Shown piece by piece: positions 3,871 through 27,317 of a DNA stretch of 40,689 nucleotides; the stretch's first letter is position 1, and the number at the start of each line of letters is the position of its first letter. A model generated the notes under the pieces. It saw only the letters and a list, made by a program, of their open reading frames with translations, was not told the DNA's origin and searched no databases. The stretch covers positions 1-40,689 of IMG/VR virus record IMGVR_UViG_3300045988_019236, one strand, 5' to 3'. The position numbers and the translations under genes are program-made. This stretch comes from a virus.

Positions 3871-5406
3871 TTATTTTGCCCCTTTCAGTTTAATTTCATC
3901 AAGCGGAACACCCTTGGTATTCTCGTACCAGTGTACCACATAGTGATGGCTCTTTGCATATACCGTCCCGGATTTCTTCTTCCAGCCGCTTGCGTCCCCA
4001 TAGTCAGGGTATGTAGCATACAGGCGCTTCAAATCCCGAATTGGCGTGCTTGTCCCGTCACCGGCCATTGTGTACACCTCAACCGCCGTAGCGCCCTTTG
4101 GTACAACTCCTTGGATTTTAGGAAGGTTTACAGTCACAGTATGAGGAATTACGGTATCTGCTTCCTGCAACTTTTTCGGCAATCCGGATTCCGCCTTGAT
4201 TGTAGCATCGTTGTTGATAAATTGCAAGTTTTTCTCATTGCTTTCTGCCGTCTTTTCCGCAGCCATGGCCTGTTTTGCGCCGAACCCGGGCATTTCCATG
4301 CGCTCATGCTGCATCCGCAGCCCTGCCGCTTCGGAAAAGCGCTTATATTCCTGATCCAAAACCTGGTACTTGATCTGATCGCGCTGTAAGTTCTCTTTGT
4401 CCCCTGTGGCCTCATCAACCAGAATTCTGCGTTTCTGCTTCCGGATGGCGGATTCAAGCCGCCGCTGACGCTGGGTAGCCTCATACGTGGTGTAGTGCTT
4501 TCCGTCGTAGTCAATGCCTTTTTCGTTATCTTTCCTGAATTTGTCCAGTTCCTCCGGCGTGTATTGCGGAGAATCAACACCCAGAATAATCGGGAAAGCC
4601 GCATGGCCGCAGTTCAGCGTACCGATACGCCGCACAAGGGAGTTATTCAGTTTCTCGTATTCTGCGTCACTGTACTGCCTGCCCTGAATCGGCTCATGGT
4701 CGGGGGCGCTGGCCGCGTGAGCGGATATCTCCCAGCCGTCACAGCCGAAATCATCGTGGTTCTGCTGGCTGATCTGCTCCTGCATCAGCCCCAAGCCGCC
4801 CATAACGCTACGCCGGACAGCGGCTTCCATGGAGGTATGAACGCCGGCTTCATAGTCGATTGTGACAATCCCCTTTTCTGCCAGATTCCGGGTAGCCTCC
4901 CGGATAGCAGATGCATAATCCTGTGCCCCCGTCGAAACCTTCGTAAAGGCGAAATCGCAAGCCTGTCTGTAAGCGTCTGTAAGCCCCACAGCCTTCCCAT
5001 TTGGCATGACAGCACCCATTGTCTGGGTGATATTGCCCAGCTCAGAATCGGCAAGCTGCACCGCCGCAGACACAATCTGCTGCAAGACCTGATTGCTGCG
5101 GAATGGCAGCGACTGCACATAGGGGTGTTTCCGGATGTCATAACTGTATCCGGTTTCCCCGGCCTGTTCTATCAGCCGCCGAAGCTCCCGGTGGGATAGT
5201 TTCAGCCGCTTTCGAAGCTCCTTTTTTAACTGCCGCTGAGAAATACCCAACTGTTGAAGTCTCCACGTCTGATAAGCCGCCGTGCTGGTGAATTGGCCAG
5301 CTTCCGCAATTCGCCTTGCAATATCCTGAATCAGGAACTCTGTCACCGGGGCAATGAGCTGCTGTGCCTTATTTCCAAGGGCTTCAATCTGGTCAGCGGT
5401 CAGCAC
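3871..5406 (-). CDS. Minor capsid / head morphogenesis protein (MuF / SPP1 gp7-like, 'minor capsid protein 2' type) with a C-terminal extension of about 120 aa
   Basis: 511 aa, immediately downstream of the portal gene. The N-terminus reads MLTADQIEALGNKAQQLIAPVTEFLIQDIARRIAEAG and there is a central GWEISAHAASAPDHEPIQGRQY block. The tail from about aa 390 has no MuF-like features. Confidence 0.8.
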   Translation of the reverse strand: MLTADQIEALGNKAQQLIAPVTEFLIQDIARRIAEAGQFTSTAAYQTWRLQQLGISQRQLKKELRKRLKLSHRELRRLIEQAGETGYSYDIRKHPYVQSLPFRSNQVLQQIVSAAVQLADSELGNITQTMGAVMPNGKAVGLTDAYRQACDFAFTKVSTGAQDYASAIREATRNLAEKGIVTIDYEAGVHTSMEAAVRRSVMGGLGLMQEQISQQNHDDFGCDGWEISAHAASAPDHEPIQGRQYSDAEYEKLNNSLVRRIGTLNCGHAAFPIILGVDSPQYTPEELDKFRKDNEKGIDYDGKHYTTYEATQRQRRLESAIRKQKRRILVDEATGDKENLQRDQIKYQVLDQEYKRFSEAAGLRMQHERMEMPGFGAKQAMAAEKTAESNEKNLQFINNDATIKAESGLPKKLQEADTVIPHTVTVNLPKIQGVVPKGATAVEVYTMAGDGTSTPIRDLKRLYATYPDYGDASGWKKKSGTVYAKSHHYVVHWYENTKGVPLDEIKLKGAK

Positions 5407-6755: not shown

Positions 6756-6957
6756 GCTTTTCTCCTCCTGCGTTGATCGTGATGCGCCGCAGCGCACGCG
6801 TGGCGTACTGCAATCCCTGTATATAGGCGTTCAAAGTATCCACTTCCGCCCGAAGCCGCCGATTTTCCGCTTCAAGCGTCCTGATATCGGCTTGCAGCGA
6901 CGCTTTCGCCCAGATAGGTGCCATATCCACGATCCATTTACGAATCCGTTTCCTCAT
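6736..6957 (-). CDS. Small coiled-coil protein between terminase and portal
   Basis: An internal ATG at 6957 within track ORF 6736..7041 has GGAGGA 7 nt upstream. The protein has a heptad-like sequence (LEAENRRLRAEVDTLNAYIQ). It overlaps both neighbours. Confidence 0.55.
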   Translation of the reverse strand: MRKRIRKWIVDMAPIWAKASLQADIRTLEAENRRLRAEVDTLNAYIQGLQYATRALRRITINAGGEKRDLSEQ

Positions 6958-8176
6958 CGCAAATTCCTCCAATAATCTTTCGTGCCTGGTGGTTTCTACG
7001 CATGACGGTCGCGCAGAAATACCGGATATCATCCATGGCATGATCGTTTTCCTTCACAGGCTTATCCACTTCTCCCTTGTCGTCCCAGCGGTACAGGCCA
7101 AATTCCCGAATCGCGTCCTTGCAGCCAGAGCCGATTTTGATAACACCAGCTTGGAGCATCATGGCCGTCAGGCGAATACCGTACATAACATCATTCTTCG
7201 CTTTCCTGACGGAGAAACGCTTGTGTGAGCGAATGCAGGCAATAAAAGAGGCCGCAGACGGGTCAACCACAATGTGTCGGATATCCCTGTCACCGGCTAG
7301 CTGTTCGATTGCCCGGTAGTATTCCTCATCCGTAAGCTGTCGTTGCTGTTCCCTGCCGGAATGATAAAATTCCGCAACCCGGACAGCAACGCCGTCTCTG
7401 ACGCACCACAGGCCAGCAGAGAATGGGTTCAGTGTTCCATAGTCACAGGATATATACCACTCTCCACATTCCGGCAAATCGTCCGTGACGTGCCTCTCTG
7501 GATCGAAGTCGTATACAATCCCATCGGCCAAGCACCACTCGCCCATAATGTACCGGCGGTAAAACACGCCTGTGTACATAGCCTCATATCTGGCAAGCGT
7601 TTTTTCTGAAAGTGACGGATTATCCGGCATTGTGAAATGCAGATACAGGGCGTTCCGCTCACTGCAACGCTTAATCCAGTTTACATAAAACCAGTGGTTG
7701 GGATTGTCCGGGTTGCAGGAAAACCACATCCGCGCCCCATCTACAGAGCATCTTGCAAGTGCCTGATTCACAAAACTTTCAGGCATGAGCGCCACTTCAT
7801 CCAGCAGAACACCGGCCAGTGTGCGCCCCTGAATCAGCATGAAGGAACTTTCATCCTTGCCGCCAAACACCTCGAACCAATTCACCACAGAGCCGCGCTT
7901 GACTTCCAGCAGCTTATCCGAGCGCCGCCAGCGGATTATGTACCGCTCTTTTGCGTAGCTCATTGAGATATAGGGAACGACAATATTCTTTGTGGCGGAA
8001 TCCACAGTTTTGCCGCAAATGCCGAAACGTTGCCCGCTGAACTCACGCATAGCCCAATCTATGAAAGCTACCATCATGATGGACGTTTTGCCGGATCGCA
8101 CAGCGCCATCACAAATCAGTGCATCGTAGTTAGTATATGGAAATGCAAGGATTTTTAATTGCTTCTGTGAAATCAT
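6938..8176 (-). CDS. terL: Terminase large subunit
   Basis: Walker A motif GAVRSGKTS near the N-terminus. The start MISQKQLKIL forms an ATGA overlap with the stop of 8173..8979. The track ORF extends to 8200. Confidence 0.9.
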   Translation of the reverse strand: MISQKQLKILAFPYTNYDALICDGAVRSGKTSIMMVAFIDWAMREFSGQRFGICGKTVDSATKNIVVPYISMSYAKERYIIRWRRSDKLLEVKRGSVVNWFEVFGGKDESSFMLIQGRTLAGVLLDEVALMPESFVNQALARCSVDGARMWFSCNPDNPNHWFYVNWIKRCSERNALYLHFTMPDNPSLSEKTLARYEAMYTGVFYRRYIMGEWCLADGIVYDFDPERHVTDDLPECGEWYISCDYGTLNPFSAGLWCVRDGVAVRVAEFYHSGREQQRQLTDEEYYRAIEQLAGDRDIRHIVVDPSAASFIACIRSHKRFSVRKAKNDVMYGIRLTAMMLQAGVIKIGSGCKDAIREFGLYRWDDKGEVDKPVKENDHAMDDIRYFCATVMRRNHQARKIIGGICDEETDS

Positions 8177-8979
8177 CCCAGCCCCCGGACAATCTCCCAC
8201 TCTCGCGGAGACAGCTCCCAGATTTGCGCGGCTACTCGTTCTGCGGCTGCTCGTTCTGCGGCTGCTCGTTCTGCGGCTGCTCGTTCCGAAAGAAGAAGCC
8301 CACAGCCGAAAACCGTTTTCCCCTGCTCCCGTTGCGCATCAAGTGCAGATATCAGAGTACATTCTCCACGCCGCACTTTCATATCAATGCCGTATTTGCT
8401 GTATTTTTGGAGCATTGCCGCGGTAAGAACGTGATCTGGATATGCGTACTTTGGAATTTCCCTTTTCGTTTCCGCCAGAGTTTTTTCCATGGCATCGGAG
8501 ATAGCCGCTCTAAGGCTTGACGCTGTTTGTGCGATTATATCGCCTCCATAGCTCGTTACAAATGCCGTTCGCACAGTGGCTCCGTTTTCGTATGTAATAT
8601 CGGCATCGCATATAATGTGATTCATGCGCATTGCCGTTTTTCGCCCAGAAAGTGCCGTGAGCGATGGGGCGAACAAAAAGAATGGGATACCGCGATCTAG
8701 GTAAAACTCGCAAATTTTGGTAAGTATAGAAAACGGCGGATTATCAAGGACAACTGCACCGCCCGAATAATCAAAGTGCTCATAGTCGCCGCCCGGGTAA
8801 AACGGGCGGACGATGCTTTCCGGATCAATGCCATATTCCGCGCAAGCCCATTTTTTCACAGCCTCATACACAAGCGGCGGCGTGTAGCAATCATCAGTCG
8901 TTTTCTTCGGCTTGAATTTTTCTATGAACGCGTCATATTCAGGATTATCCTGAAACAACGATATTTGATTATCCACCAT
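8173..8979 (-). CDS. DNA N6-adenine methyltransferase (DNPPF catalytic motif; Dam/EcoRI-methylase-like phage family)
   Basis: Contains DDCYTPP followed by VVLDNPPF. The gene is inserted between terS and terL. The C-terminus carries the pentapeptide repeat ERAAA x3 plus ERVAA. Confidence 0.7.
   Translation of the reverse strand: MVDNQISLFQDNPEYDAFIEKFKPKKTTDDCYTPPLVYEAVKKWACAEYGIDPESIVRPFYPGGDYEHFDYSGGAVVLDNPPFSILTKICEFYLDRGIPFFLFAPSLTALSGRKTAMRMNHIICDADITYENGATVRTAFVTSYGGDIIAQTASSLRAAISDAMEKTLAETKREIPKYAYPDHVLTAAMLQKYSKYGIDMKVRRGECTLISALDAQREQGKTVFGCGLLLSERAAAERAAAERAAAERVAAQIWELSPREWEIVRGLG
8228..8287. repeat. Four tandem 15-bp repeats (gcggctgctcgttct) inside the methyltransferase gene
   Basis: Units at 8228-8242, 8243-8257, 8258-8272 and 8273-8287, with 1 mismatch in the first and 1 in the last unit. 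They encode (ERAAA)n. Confidence 0.9.
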
Positions 8980-23569: not shown

Positions 23570-23591
23570 GATTCACCTTTTCAAGATAATT
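23570..23591. repeat. 22-bp direct repeat GATTCACCTTTTCAAGATAATT, copy 1 (contains the operator motif)
   Basis: Identical to 23817-23838. It lies in the 5-prime leader of 23325..23537. Confidence 0.85.
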
Positions 23592-23799
23592 ATGGTTCAA
23601 AAAAAATGTGGTCAACTTGCTCAGCAGAAAGATCGAGAATAGACTTTATGCTGCGAACTTCGCCAAGCGAGAATTCCGCTCCACCAGTTCCGTTCAATTT
23701 GGCGTTAAACCTAGACAAACTGACACCGATACTGCGGGCAACATTCTCTTGGGTCATTGCCTTCGCTCGTATTTCGCCTTTTAGCAAATTGCTATTCAT
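23590..23799 (-). CDS. Cro-like / antirepressor-like HTH protein
   Basis: ATG at 23799 with AAAGGAGGGG upstream. HTH segment MTQENVARSIGVSLSRFNAKLNG. It is divergent from the repressor gene. Confidence 0.7.
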   Translation of the reverse strand: MNSNLLKGEIRAKAMTQENVARSIGVSLSRFNAKLNGTGGAEFSLGEVRSIKSILDLSAEQVDHIFFEP

Positions 23800-23816
23800 T
23801 TTTTCCCCTCCTTTCG

Positions 23817-23838
23817 GATTCACCTTTTCAAGATAATT
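23817..23838. repeat. 22-bp direct repeat, copy 2 (operator at the transcription start of the leftward promoter)
   Basis: Identical to 23570-23591. Confidence 0.85.
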
Positions 23839-23840
23839 TC

Positions 23841-23868
23841 ATTATACACGCTCTTTTCTATTTGTCAA
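23841..23868 (-). promoter_or_regulatory. Early leftward promoter (Cro side)
   Basis: Minus strand: TTGACA (23868-23863), a 16-nt spacer, then TATAAT (23846-23841). One TCAAGATA motif overlaps the -35 box and another lies at the transcription start. Confidence 0.75.
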
Positions 23869-23878
23869 GATATTTTTA

Positions 23879-23907
23879 TTGACTTTATCAACTTTTTTTG
23901 CTATTAT
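23879..23907 (+). promoter_or_regulatory. Repressor promoter
   Basis: TTGACT (23879-23884), a 17-nt spacer, then TATTAT (23902-23907). A TCAAGATA motif at 23907-23914 abuts the -10 box. Confidence 0.7.
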
Positions 23908-23937: not shown

Positions 23938-24258
23938 ATGACACTTGGAGACAAAATCCGCTTCCACCGGAAACGGCTCGGCATGACGCAAACGGAATTA
24001 GGGGCGCGGCTAGGCGTTCAAGTGAACGCCGTGAGCAAGTGGGAGTGTGGGCGTGTGGAATCAATCCCGACGTCAAAAATTAAAGAGCTTGCAAAAATTT
24101 TCGGCGTAGCTCCATCCTATTTAATAGATGATGGACAGCCCGCCGATTCCAGCGAGCTGTCCGAAGCCAAGAAAGCTATGTATGATTTTGTCGATTCGCT
24201 TTCTGACGATCAGGTGCGGCGGCTTCTTCAGATAGCACACGCCGCATTTGAGAAATGA
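23938..24258 (+). CDS. XRE-family phage repressor (CI-like, no peptidase domain)
   Basis: MTLGDKIRFHRKRLGMTQTELGARLGVQVNAVSKWECGR. RBS GAAAGGGGGG. Confidence 0.8.
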   Translation: MTLGDKIRFHRKRLGMTQTELGARLGVQVNAVSKWECGRVESIPTSKIKELAKIFGVAPSYLIDDGQPADSSELSEAKKAMYDFVDSLSDDQVRRLLQIAHAAFEK

Positions 24259-24322: not shown

Positions 24323-24440
24323 ATTTTGTCCCTCCATTATGTATTTATAAACATTTGTTTGATTACGTAGCGTATAATAGCACGTCATGTGTCCAATAAA
24401 CTGGACTTATTAGAAATTTGCACAAAAATTTTTCTTTTCA

Positions 24441-24474
24441 TTGAAATTATATGTCGAACGTGGTATTATCTTGA
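24441..24474 (+). promoter_or_regulatory. Promoter-like element with an inverted copy of the operator motif
   Basis: TTGAAA (24441-24446), a 17-nt spacer, then TATTAT (24464-24469), overlapping TATCTTGA (24467-24474), which is the reverse complement of TCAAGATA. Confidence 0.4.
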
Positions 24475-24521
24475 ATGAAGATGACAATTGAATTCTGATT
24501 CAAAAAAATTTTTAAAAGTGG

Positions 24522-24550
24522 TTGACAACTGAATATTCAGGCTTTATAAT
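24522..24550 (+). promoter_or_regulatory. Consensus promoter of the RNA-repeat/toxin unit
   Basis: TTGACA (24522-24527), a 17-nt spacer, then TATAAT (24545-24550). Confidence 0.8.
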
Positions 24551-24570
24551 GAGGGTGTGGATAATTCCAC

Positions 24571-24670
24571 GATGATGAAGCCTTAGAGCGAGGCTTCTGC
24601 GGGAAAAAGAAAGCTCAATTGATGATTTGCTCGTAGAGCGCGAGCAGCATAATCAAAAGAAAGCTCAATT
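24571..24670 (+). ncRNA. Two tandem 50-nt repeats, a candidate type III antitoxin RNA
   Basis: Units are 24571-24620 and 24621-24670, identical at 31 of 50 positions. Each has a 7-bp hairpin with loop TAGAGCG and ends in AAAAGAAAGCTCAATT. No ORF covers the repeats. They lie between a promoter and a terminator, upstream of the toxin-like ORF. Confidence 0.7.
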
Positions 24671-24677
24671 GATTTTC

Positions 24678-24710
24678 ACGCCCTCTGTTTCGACAGGGGG
24701 CGTCTTTTTT
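24678..24710 (+). terminator. Rho-independent terminator between the RNA repeats and the toxin ORF
   Basis: ACGCCCTCTG-tttcga-CAGGGGGCGT forms a 10-bp stem with one G-U pair. It is followed by CTTTTTT, and then by the RBS AGGAGAG. Confidence 0.8.
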
Positions 24711-24723
24711 AGGAGAGAGATAG

Positions 24724-25146
24724 ATGAAGCTGATCACCCTGTCCCCGGTCTTCTACGAAAGGTATCGCGGCTGTGAAGAGATTCTGATAAAGCAGACAAG
24801 GCCGTATGTCTGTTTGGCGGTTAAAGTTGACGGCGTTACATTCGCAATTCCTTTTCGCCACCATATTCCCCACAAGTGGGCATTCTTTACCGTTGGCGAA
24901 GCTGGGCTGGATTATTCAAAAGCCGTCGTCATCTCCGAATGGCGGTTTATCAATTCAAGCACACCGACCATCGAGCAGGAAGAATTCAATATATTGAAAG
25001 GGAAAGATGCACTGATCACCAACGGAATGCGGAAATTCCTGATTGCGTACAGGAATGCCGTGAAGTATCCGGATAACAAGCATTATGACATGATCCGTTC
25101 ATGCAGTTCCCTTCAATACTTTCACCGCGAATTACGTATTCGTTAG
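24724..25146 (+). CDS. Type III toxin-antitoxin toxin-like protein (ToxN/AbiQ-TenpN-CptN superfamily-like endoribonuclease)
   Basis: 140 aa: MKLITLSPVFYERYRGCEEILIKQTRPYVCLAVKVDGVTFAIPFRHHIPHKWAFFT...GLDYSKAVVI. The call rests on locus architecture plus motif resemblance from memory. Confidence 0.65.
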   Translation: MKLITLSPVFYERYRGCEEILIKQTRPYVCLAVKVDGVTFAIPFRHHIPHKWAFFTVGEAGLDYSKAVVISEWRFINSSTPTIEQEEFNILKGKDALITNGMRKFLIAYRNAVKYPDNKHYDMIRSCSSLQYFHRELRIR

Positions 25147-25325
25147 GGCTATACGCCCCGCCACCCGTGCCACAAGGTGACGGGGCTTTGCCGCCGGAAT
25201 GGTGTGTCCCTTGCCGGTTGCAATATCACCATAGCATTTTCAGCTATAGAAAGTAAACCACACATCTGATTCCGCCGGAATCAAATGTGAACAATCCCGT
25301 ATCAAATTTAATAGGAGGGCGAATT

Positions 25326-26012
25326 ATGGATTCAAATACAGGCCAAACATTCATCGAGGAAATGCAGCCGAATTTCGATGCCCTCCCGGAAAGGCTGAAA
25401 GACGAGAAATTCCGGAACCATCTGACGAATCAGCAGCTTTCTGACGTGTCCGGCGTTCCTATCGCCACAACAAGCCGGATTCTTTCCGGTGCCGTATCGA
25501 ACCCCGGCTTTTTCCATATCGCCGCGCTGTGCGCCGCTATGGGCGTGTCAATGGATTCCGTTGCAGGTGTTCACCCAAGCGGAGATCAGGCGGAAATAGA
25601 CCAGCTCCGGCAGGAGATAGCATACAAGGACGAGATAATTGCCGAGAAGGGCGCGGCGATAGACCGCTTACTGGACAGGAGCCGCATTATGGAGGCTGGT
25701 GTCGCGGCCAGAGATGACCGCATCGGCAAACAAAATGAAGAAATAAAGAATGTCCGCAGCTCATACAAAATCCTTGTGTACGGGCTGTGCGGCGTTTGCA
25801 TTACGCTGACATTTGTGTTGGCAATCTATGTGGCTCTGGATAGCCAAGCGCCAGACCAGGGGCTGATACAGTCTGATAATGTTTCTCCGGTCGTATGGGC
25901 AGGTGCGGCGGCTGTTATTGTACTGCTGTTCGGCCTTCTGCACTTCACTGTAAGCAAATTATCAAAAAAGAGGGATACGCTATGGGAAGAAAGAAAAAAG
26001 AGCCGGGGGTAA
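25326..26012 (+). CDS. Membrane-anchored HTH protein (XRE-like HTH, coiled coil, two TM helices)
   Basis: ATG at 25326 with TAGGAGGG upstream. HTH segment LTNQQLSDVSGVPIATTSRILSG. Hydrophobic segments ILVYGLCGVCITLTFVLAIYVAL and VVWAGAAAVIVLLFGLLHF. The 3-prime end overlaps int by 31 nt. Confidence 0.65.
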   Translation: MDSNTGQTFIEEMQPNFDALPERLKDEKFRNHLTNQQLSDVSGVPIATTSRILSGAVSNPGFFHIAALCAAMGVSMDSVAGVHPSGDQAEIDQLRQEIAYKDEIIAEKGAAIDRLLDRSRIMEAGVAARDDRIGKQNEEIKNVRSSYKILVYGLCGVCITLTFVLAIYVALDSQAPDQGLIQSDNVSPVVWAGAAAVIVLLFGLLHFTVSKLSKKRDTLWEERKKSRG

Positions 26013-27049
26013 AACTCCCGGCTATAATACAACTCCCGTCAGGGTCATGGCGAACAAGAATCTATATCGACGGCCGCACAGTATCCATAACGAAAGACAC
26101 CTACGACGAATGCGCGGCGGAATACCTCGCCATGAAGCACGGGGTCATTGAAGCGAAAGCCGCCCCCATGAAGCACGGGGTGCCGCTGGGGGACGCTCTC
26201 GACAAATACATTTCGACCCGGAAGGGGTTCAAGTCACCGTCAACGATTTATGCGTATGAATCCTACCGCAAGCAGCGCTTCCAAAGCATGATGGGGGCCG
26301 ACGTGTACACCACCACGGACGAACAGTGGCAAGCCGCCATCCGCAGGGAAGCAAAATCACTGTCCCCGAAATATATTAAAAATGTGTGGATGCTGATTTC
26401 CGCAGCGATATTCGAGGAAACTGGACGCAGGCCGCGGGTGACCCTGCCGGAAAAGGAACACAACGAAAAGCCGTACCTTGATCCGGATCAGATACCGGTG
26501 TTCCTGCAAGCCATAAAAGGGGAATCGATAGAAATTGCCGCCCTGCTGGAATTATCCAGCTTGCGCAGGTCTGAGATGCTGGCGCTGACGTGGGACAAGG
26601 TCGACTTCAAGAACGAAATAATATATGTCCACGGGGCAAGAGTTGCCGGGGACGGCGGCAAGCTGGTTCACAAGAAGCAGAACAAAAACGATTCCTCCCG
26701 GCGCACGGTGCCAATTATTGAGCCGCTAATGGAAGCACTAAAGGCAGTTGATAACAAGGAAGGTTATGTCGTCAACCTGACCGGCGGGTGGATATGCACA
26801 AGGATAAACGAGATTTGTTCCGCCAACGGCCTGCCGAAAGTCGGGAACCACGGATTGCGGCACAGCTTCGCGTCTCTGGCTTATCACCTCCAGATACCGG
26901 AAAAGATAGCAATGGAAATTGGCGGGTGGGCAGATGACGGGACGATGCACAAAATATATACACATCTGGCACAGAAAGACATTGCAAAACGGGCGCAGGA
27001 TTTTCGGAACTTCTTTGTGTCAAATGCGGATGAAAAAGCGCAAATTTGA
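25982..27049 (+). CDS. int: Tyrosine integrase
   Basis: ATG at 25982 with AGAGGGA upstream. C-terminal catalytic region HGLRHSFASLAYHL...GGW...MHKIYTH. The track ORF starts at 25895. Confidence 0.9.
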   Translation: MGRKKKEPGVKLPAIIQLPSGSWRTRIYIDGRTVSITKDTYDECAAEYLAMKHGVIEAKAAPMKHGVPLGDALDKYISTRKGFKSPSTIYAYESYRKQRFQSMMGADVYTTTDEQWQAAIRREAKSLSPKYIKNVWMLISAAIFEETGRRPRVTLPEKEHNEKPYLDPDQIPVFLQAIKGESIEIAALLELSSLRRSEMLALTWDKVDFKNEIIYVHGARVAGDGGKLVHKKQNKNDSSRRTVPIIEPLMEALKAVDNKEGYVVNLTGGWICTRINEICSANGLPKVGNHGLRHSFASLAYHLQIPEKIAMEIGGWADDGTMHKIYTHLAQKDIAKRAQDFRNFFVSNADEKAQI

Positions 27050-27111
27050 CACGCCATTTGACACGGATTTTGAAAAAGCATTGTATACCAACGCTTTTTG
27101 GAATTTTAATC

Positions 27112-27139: not shown

Positions 27140-27145
27140 TGGCAG

Positions 27146-27178
27146 AAAACACCCTAGAACTTGTTTCTAGGGTGTTTT
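27146..27178. terminator. Perfect 14-bp hairpin, a bidirectional terminator next to the att core
   Basis: AAAACACCCTAGAA-cttgt-TTCTAGGGTGTTTT. Confidence 0.65.
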
Positions 27179-27317
27179 TATTGGTTTTACCGCTTTATTC
27201 TGAGAACTCCGAACTTTTCCGTGGTAAAATATTTTTATGAACTATAGATTTTTGGCACACGTAATACAGTTTTTGGGTGCAAATTTGACACGCCATTTGA
27301 CACGAAATTTGCCACGC

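Follow-up and report, generated by a model that had tools for sequence, protein, structure and literature searches.

Type III toxin-antitoxin (TA) systems of the tenpIN family are the closest described relatives of the locus analyzed here, which lies at positions 24522-25146 of the virus record IMGVR_UViG_3300045988_019236 from IMG/VR (40,689 nt; this whole stretch is called the window below). The family is characterized by antitoxin repeats (tenpI) with a mean length of 50.9 nt (39-57 nt) in 2.2 copies (1.9-3.0) and by toxins (TenpN) with a mean length of 164 amino acids (aa). TenpN from P. luminescens is toxic and is neutralized by its own repeats, and TenpIN aborts coliphages (Blower et al. 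2012, PMC3401426). Subsequent work catalogued 722 TenpN sequences, described a ToxN-like core in the AlphaFold model of TenpN, and placed 42 operons in Caudoviricetes from human metagenomes. According to the same study, tenpI repeats are non-identical, diverge by up to 35% and are missed by Tandem Repeats Finder (TRF); they contain a conserved A-stretch and form an H-type pseudoknot whose stem 2 covaries (Nadig et al. 2025, PMC12283969). Comparison with these descriptions leads us to conclude that the window locus is very probably a type III TA module of the TenpIN family, an accessory cassette among the lysogeny genes of a siphovirus-like temperate phage of the gut, for which a species of Oscillospiraceae or related Clostridia is the probable host.

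The locus consists of the following elements.

24522-24550, plus strand: tenpIN promoter, -35 TTGACA (24522-24527), 17-nt spacer, -10 TATAAT (24545-24550), matching the consensus at 12/12 positions
24571-24620, plus strand: tenpI unit 1, 40.0 bits with covariance model R1 (see below), in whose seed this unit was included
24577-24583/24591-24597, plus strand: stem 1 of unit 1, around loop UAGAGCG (24584-24590); A-run at 24604-24612
24586-24589 with 24613-24616, plus strand: pseudoknot stem 2 of unit 1, loop GAGC with GCUC
24621-24670, plus strand: tenpI unit 2, supported by Rfam RF02925 (63.1 bits), R1 (71.4 bits) and covariation
24627-24633/24641-24647, plus strand: stem 1 of unit 2, around loop UAGAGCG (24634-24640); A-run at 24655-24662
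24636-24639 with 24663-24666, plus strand: pseudoknot stem 2 of unit 2, GAGC with GCUC
24671-24673, plus strand: GAT, the start of a third unit (about 2.06 copies in all)
24678-24710, plus strand: intrinsic terminator in the gap between antitoxin repeats and toxin; hairpin 24678-24703 with 11 pairs, 7 of them G-C, followed by CTTTTTT (T-run 24705-24710)
24711-24717, plus strand: ribosome binding site AGGAGAG, 6 nt upstream of the ATG, read from the sequence
24724-25146, plus strand: tenpN toxin gene, 140 aa, predicted endoribonuclease, matching NCBIfam NF047358

The promoter, repeats, terminator hairpin, AGGAGAG and 140-aa open reading frame (ORF) with its quoted motifs had all been described in a first-pass annotation of this DNA, and each of them was found where that annotation had placed it. 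For comparison we used 91 loci encoding relatives of the toxin, collected from genomes and IMG/VR, which contain 78 distinct upstream regions; the source genomes include Oscillospiraceae, Lachnospiraceae, Collinsella, Treponema and others. The order of promoter, tandem direct repeats, Rho-independent terminator and toxin ORF characterizes type III TA loci, and it recurs in these homologous loci, which bears out the canonical layout proposed at first sight. The accompanying statement that no ORF covers the repeats needs qualification: two mechanical ORFs overlap unit 2 (49 aa, plus strand, TTG start, 24627-24776; 40 aa, minus strand, 24615-24737), but neither is conserved. Only 6/78 homologous loci contain a stop-free frame across the repeats, without a consistent frame, and we therefore rejected the idea that the repeats encode a leader peptide. 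Judged by this comparison, the repeat region is non-coding.

The 140-aa ORF matches the equivalog model NF047358 (type III toxin-antitoxin system TenpIN family toxin) with 124.2 bits (cutoff 90, E = 4.5e-36) over profile positions 1-141 of 141, and the same model is matched by 44/44 aligned homologues. The proposal of a TenpN/CptN-like toxin, for which a profile search against the type III toxin families had been suggested, thus holds for TenpN. It does not hold for CptN, as neither a CptN nor a ToxN profile was matched; TenpIN was the sole NCBIfam match at E<=1, which is a weak negative for CptN, since the presence of a CptN model in the release is unconfirmed. Six residues are invariant in the alignment of 44 homologues (R26, P43, R45, G61, D63 and K66), and two are nearly so (Y28 and H50). 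The conserved residues reported for TenpN are, in the numbering used there, R36, Y38, P53, R55, H60, G75, D77 and K80 (Nadig et al. 2025, PMC12283969). The two sets share the motifs RPY, PFR..H and GLDYxK, as compared by eye on the basis of motifs, the sequences being unaligned.

The toxin is also predicted to have a ToxN-like endoribonuclease fold. Its AlphaFold2 model (pLDDT 95.5, pTM 0.90) gave ToxN (2XD0), ToxN-Bt (4ATO) and AbiQ (4GLK) as the three best Foldseek matches in the PDB, with probabilities of 0.98-1.00 and TMq of 0.52-0.61; MazF-type toxins rank far below these among the fold matches. An identical protein is already public (DAD99010.1 / UniRef A0A8S5NXR4, Siphoviridae sp. ctVzN31), where it is named 'toxin' or 'protein AbiQ'. 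The identical protein was seen on 48 contigs, and 102 carry a near-identical one; a search of GenBank phage records (INPHARED) by blastn or tblastn gave no match.

The two 50-nt units are arranged head to tail and are 62-64% identical overall. Their 3' 19 nt are 100% identical (AAAAGAAAGCTCAATTGAT), and their 5' 20 nt are 70% identical. Overall identity this high did not arise in any of 500 shuffles, while 5/174 real window tiles were as high at some period, so that the window repeat taken alone is only moderately above chance. What makes it convincing is the comparative evidence: most of the 78 distinct upstream regions contain a tandem duplication with a period of 50-53 nt, starting at the same offset of about 140-180 nt before the ATG. 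TRF did not call the 50-nt repeat in the window, which is not evidence against it, because such a miss is consistent with the published difficulty for tenpI.

The stem sequences of the two units differ but are compensated around the same loop TAGAGCG (unit 1, GAAGCCT/AGGCTTC; unit 2, TTGCTCG/CGAGCAG). On 87 distinct aligned units we tested a structure comprising a 7-bp stem 1 and a 4-bp pseudoknot formed by loop GAGC and the 3' block GCUC. With this structure 95% of cells are paired, as compared to 33-42% with the partners slid. All seven stem-1 pairs change on both sides, although the stem-1 statistics are partly biased, because the units were selected for a hairpin. The pseudoknot played no part in this selection; its pair 17:46 has switched from AU to GC in 25 units, and a switch at pair 18:45 is seen in 5. 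A37, A38 and A40 are invariant, so that the A-rich second half typical of TenpIN is present. Hence the simple hairpin proposed at first does not describe this RNA: the covariation supports an H-type pseudoknot instead. The minimum free energy fold of the transcript contains a long-range helix around unit 2; we did not rely on it, because such a fold cannot model pseudoknots.

An alternative register, in which the loop pairs with the 3' block of the previous unit, was examined at the 14 informative loci whose two units differ in pseudoknot sequence. There, loop and 3' block of the same unit form 3.86 Watson-Crick pairs as compared to 2.07 with the preceding unit, and the alternative was rejected. 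Own-unit pairing fixes the register and points to the single-stranded junction AAUUGAUGAU as the likely processing site.

The first-pass annotation had asked whether repeats of this kind always precede related ORFs, and conservation of the RNA across the homologous loci gives a largely affirmative answer, with 50-53-nt units and a terminator at the same place. A unit consisting of hairpin plus A-run was found in 74/78 loci, with exactly two units in 58. The covariance model R1, built from the 87 distinct units, hit 85/91 loci; 115/118 of its matches end 37-137 nt before the toxin start, all in the same orientation as the toxin. When run over the 40.7-kb window, R1 found nothing above 10 bits beyond the two units. 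The terminator is similarly widespread: a hairpin of <= -10 kcal/mol followed by a T-rich tail separates repeats and toxin in 77/78 loci but is present in only 5/78 shuffles. This energy-based test was used in place of a stricter detector (perfect stems, loops <=8 nt), which gave a terminator in 46/78.

These data set the locus within the described range of type III systems. With 50 nt and about 2.06 copies, the window repeats fall inside the tenpIN range of 39-57 nt and 1.9-3.0 copies. The features initially floated as signs of a new RNA variant are the family norm, as they appear already in Blower et al. 2012 (50.9 nt, 2.2 copies) and Nadig et al. 2025; the locus is an ordinary, previously uncharacterized member of TenpIN, and its repeat is not a new variant. 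It resembles P. luminescens TT01 TenpIN and the tenpIN family at large in the toxin profile, the layout, about two unlike repeats of about 50 nt that escape TRF, the A-stretch, the H-type pseudoknot and the occurrence in gut Caudoviricetes prophages. In contrast to P. luminescens TenpIN, from which it is distant in sequence, it belongs to a clade from Clostridia, Collinsella and Treponema with an RNA matching Rfam 6A. ToxIN (P. atrosepticum, B. thuringiensis) and AbiQ share with it the operon logic, the closest predicted fold and a pseudoknot RNA antitoxin, but there is no match at the sequence level, and ToxI arrays consist of up to 5.5 near-identical copies of a unit of about 36 nt, whereas the window contains two unlike 50-nt units. 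CptIN (Eubacterium rectale; PDB 4RMO) is likewise found in gut Firmicutes, with about two repeats of 40-48 nt and an A-rich strand that is proposed to make A-minor contacts with stem 1, much as the window RNA might; the differences are the missing CptN profile match and the near-identical CptI repeats (Nadig et al. 2025, PMC12283969). The known picture of type III systems is left unchanged by this locus. The additions are modest, and comprise a link between the 6A RNA and tenpI, the separate conservation of the two unlike units, and a cassette of about 0.7 kb whose site also exists empty or with other cargo.

Beside the selection bias in the stem-1 statistics, several points weigh against assignment to TenpIN. 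The Foldseek E-values are weak (3e-3 to 4e-2), and the TM-scores are just 0.5-0.6. Scanning the toxin against Pfam gave no family at E<=1, including no match to ToxN_toxin, the PADLOC scan contained no model that recognized it, and a sequence search of the PDB found no solved relative of the toxin and no TenpN or TenpIN structure. Unit 1 is below the Rfam 6A threshold and was unreported even at E<=10. Experimental support in the family comes from a single distant member, that of P. luminescens (Blower et al. 2012, PMC3401426). For annotation, the TenpIN assignment means that an ORF of a gut phage can be named as a TenpN toxin with a two-unit tenpI antitoxin. It also exposes a gap, since the toxin goes unrecognized by Pfam and PADLOC, the repeats escape TRF, and one of the units carries the Rfam label of an orphan sRNA.

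By analogy with characterized relatives we infer that the toxin of the window locus is toxic, that its RNA is processed and neutralizes it, that the terminator is leaky and that the module has a biological role, and we propose the following mechanism. The strong, constitutive promoter would transcribe the two tenpI units of about 50 nt, with most transcripts ending at the intrinsic terminator and some reading through into tenpN. Partial read-through, as suggested by the family, would therefore keep the RNA in excess over the toxin. Each unit is expected to fold into an H-type pseudoknot with a 7-bp stem 1, loop GAGC paired to the 3' GCUC, and an A-rich linker crossing stem 1. TenpN, as an endoribonuclease with a ToxN fold, may then cut the precursor in the single-stranded AAUUGAUGAU junctions and stay associated with the processed pseudoknots in a closed, inactive complex. 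Should the labile RNA no longer be replenished, because an infecting phage shuts off transcription or because the prophage is lost, free TenpN would degrade RNA and halt growth. The outcome would be abortive infection or retention of the prophage.

The window represents a tailed temperate phage with major head, minor head, portal, large terminase, tape-measure and tail-fibre genes on the minus strand. The lysogeny region contains the following features.

23590-23823, minus strand: DUF739 Cro-like gene, facing the XRE helix-turn-helix (HTH) gene across divergent promoters
23938-24258, plus strand: XRE-family HTH repressor-like gene (Pfam HTH_3, E = 1.9e-10)
24473-25150 relative to other-cargo alleles, or about 24433-25154 relative to empty sites, plus strand: tenpIN cassette, delimited by blastn breakpoints
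25895-27049, plus strand: tyrosine integrase (Pfam Phage_integrase, E = 2.4e-16)

Along the plus strand, which is the lysogeny strand, the order is thus XRE HTH gene, tenpIN, HTH-plus-membrane protein and tyrosine integrase, in agreement with the initial placement of the locus between repressor and integrase. Back-to-back promoters at 23841-23868 (minus strand, 12/12 consensus) and 23879-23907 (plus strand, 10/12, extended TG) lie between the DUF739 and XRE genes and probably form the lysis-lysogeny switch. The HTH-plus-membrane protein (241 aa, 25287-26012, plus strand) matches HTH_3 weakly at its N-terminus and is hydrophobic in its C-terminal half; its gene sits between tenpN and the integrase and overlaps the start of the integrase ORF. 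It adjoins the integrase in most related phages, among which at least three variants of its sequence exist (about 42%, 75% and 93-100% identity).

We compared 68 IMG/VR contigs carrying the same integrase family and at least 3 kb of upstream sequence. Just 3/68 of these contigs contain tenpN. On two backbones with 93-98% identity to the window (L107 and L152), blastn homology ends at 24472 and resumes at 25151, and the slot is occupied by a 399-aa gene with a partial Phage_min_cap2 domain (L107 1925-3124). Two further alleles, L101 and L105, are empty sites; in L101 the flanks 24432 and 25155 are joined with 5 nt between them. These breakpoints identify tenpIN as a discrete cassette of about 0.7 kb that occupies a variable cargo slot and brings its own promoter, which falls inside the segment missing from the related phages. 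The empty sites are located around 3171-3177 in L101 and around 3148-3175 in L105. The initial ~58 nt of the slot (window 24415-24472) are common to L107 and the window and hold a second promoter-like site at 24441-24469. TTAG is found at both cassette edges, where it may occur by chance.

Relatives with 58-63% identity are similarly placed in other prophages, either with a CI/LexA-type repressor before them and a serine integrase after them, or close to a tyrosine integrase together with other defense-like genes. On L095/L096 (6001-9499) a tenpN homologue with 63% identity lies directly 3' of a CI/LexA-type repressor (HTH plus Peptidase_S24) and is followed by a Fic-domain gene, a large serine recombinase and then Cas1/Cas2 genes.

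A position beside the integrase fits addiction as well as defense, and the same TenpIN module may serve mainly to stabilize the prophage by post-segregational killing rather than to defend its host by abortive infection, a possibility we consider open to argument but not the likely one. The cassette is absent from 65/68 related phages, which evidently persist without it, and this speaks against addiction as the main role. Moron positions in lysogeny modules are typical of superinfection defenses, which also counts against such a role. Both plasmid maintenance and defense have been reported as functions of type III systems (Nadig et al. 2025, PMC12283969; Blower et al. 2012, PMC3401426), and CptIN loci conferred no phage resistance in the assays of Blower et al. 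2012, but in the same study P. luminescens TenpIN aborted coliphages (PMC3401426). By analogy with that member, a role of the window module in anti-phage defense is plausible. The near-identical backbones with tenpIN, an empty site or other cargo would make a convenient system for distinguishing host defense from prophage stabilization.

The RNA of this TenpIN module leads to an orphan Rfam family. Unit 2 is a full-length match to the 6A RNA (RF02925) with 63.1 bits as compared to a gathering score of 41.2, and hairpin and A-run are common to both. The differences are that Rfam types the family as 'Gene; sRNA' and models no pseudoknot, and that unit 1 of the window clade escapes the model. Matches to 6A were found only just upstream of TenpN homologues in 12/13 sources searched. 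From this distribution the orphan 'sRNA' family appears to be the tenpI repeat of the window clade, which would give the family a function and provide a ready-made covariance model for tenpI. The 6A RNA presumably originates from Weinberg et al. 2017, although the main text of that paper makes no mention of the motif. No paper linking 6A/RF02925 to TA systems was found in a literature search that took in the main text of Weinberg et al. 2017.

Extra tenpI-like units were observed away from the main locus on two Collinsella contigs. L068 (8210-8314) contains two such units and a hairpin with no recognizable TenpN downstream, as an orphan array. L071 (23-75) contains a unit and a terminator followed by an ORF that starts TenpN-like (MSSQIVFLSDSFYGDY...) and then diverges, which makes it probably a remnant.

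The Rfam class of RF02925 would suit a different function of the repeats, namely as a cis-acting leader or attenuator, or as a trans-acting sRNA, that regulates the ORF or other targets and does not bind the toxin. The terminator directly 3' of a structured RNA is attenuator-like, and the L068 array without a recognizable toxin weakly favors independent activity. We consider regulation of this kind very unlikely, since the tandem motif stands immediately 5' of a TenpN-family toxin in 85/91 loci, no alternative anti-terminator pairing is evident, and such an arrangement defines type III TA, of which the tested member has repeats that neutralize its toxin (Blower et al. 2012, PMC3401426).

If the repeats are antitoxin RNAs, as we favor, the difference between the two units requires attention. 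Tails, loop, A-run and pseudoknot strand are common to the two units, whereas their stem-1 sequences are mutually incompatible and their linkers different. Within the window clade, first units resemble each other (identity 0.84) and second units resemble each other (0.90) more than first units resemble second units (0.66), and three other clades exhibit the same pattern. When clades are compared, conservation is higher in the toxin-proximal unit (0.70 as compared to about 0.53). Pairing in stem 1 and pseudoknot is kept in both (paired fraction across loci 93-94% for unit 1, 96-97% for unit 2). Separate conservation of the two types together with kept pairing argues that both units are functional and not the products of random decay, and bears on the question, raised in 2025, whether both repeats function.

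A bolder interpretation is that the antitoxin of this clade is an obligate pair of different pseudoknot RNAs, with 6A to be re-assigned from 'sRNA' to type III antitoxin; taken as a whole we regard this proposal as tentative and rather doubtful. If true, it would predict a TenpIN complex with one RNA of each kind, for example a closed heterotetramer of two TenpN, TenpI-a and TenpI-b like that of CptIN, whose two-RNA assembly offers a plausible template for an array of two units. The incompatible stems may instead serve only to prevent misfolding of the tandem precursor. That the cassette is instead a decaying remnant with an inactive toxin or a degenerating unit 1, as the 62-64% unit identity, the sub-threshold Rfam score of unit 1 and the truncated tenpN remnants elsewhere (L071) might suggest, is hardly probable at all, given a full-length ORF with all family-invariant residues, identical and near-identical proteins on 48 and 102 contigs, fully compensated stem changes with intact pseudoknot and A-run in unit 1, and a unit-1 type that is conserved (0.84 within type, 0.66 between types) and 93-94% paired across loci.

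A few further observations concern other parts of the window and one related contig. Downstream of the TenpIN cassette, the 12-mer AATTTGACACGC forms tandem arrays on the plus strand at 27043-27066 (2 copies) and 27282-27317 (3 copies), which begin at the stop codon of the integrase and have a terminator-like hairpin (27145-27179) between them. These arrays could be arm-type binding sites of the integrase in attP, as a candidate assignment; only the clustering of the 12-mer is of note, because its window-wide count is not above chance (8 as compared to 4.6 expected). In the head-gene block, between the minor head (3871-5406) and major head (1686-2681) genes, the segment 3274-3335 (minus strand) matches the cis-regulatory candidate GP20-b RNA (RF03003) with 43.3 bits (gathering score 36.2). 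A 15-nt tandem repeat, GCGGCTGCTCGTTCT, occupies 8228-8286 with 3.9 copies and 97% matches, and adjoins the start of the large terminase gene (6938-8200, minus strand). Finally, a FuFi-1 RNA (RF02986, 84.8 bits) was detected about 1 kb upstream of tenpIN on a contig of an Oscillospiraceae metagenome-assembled genome (L005 1464-1682, plus strand).

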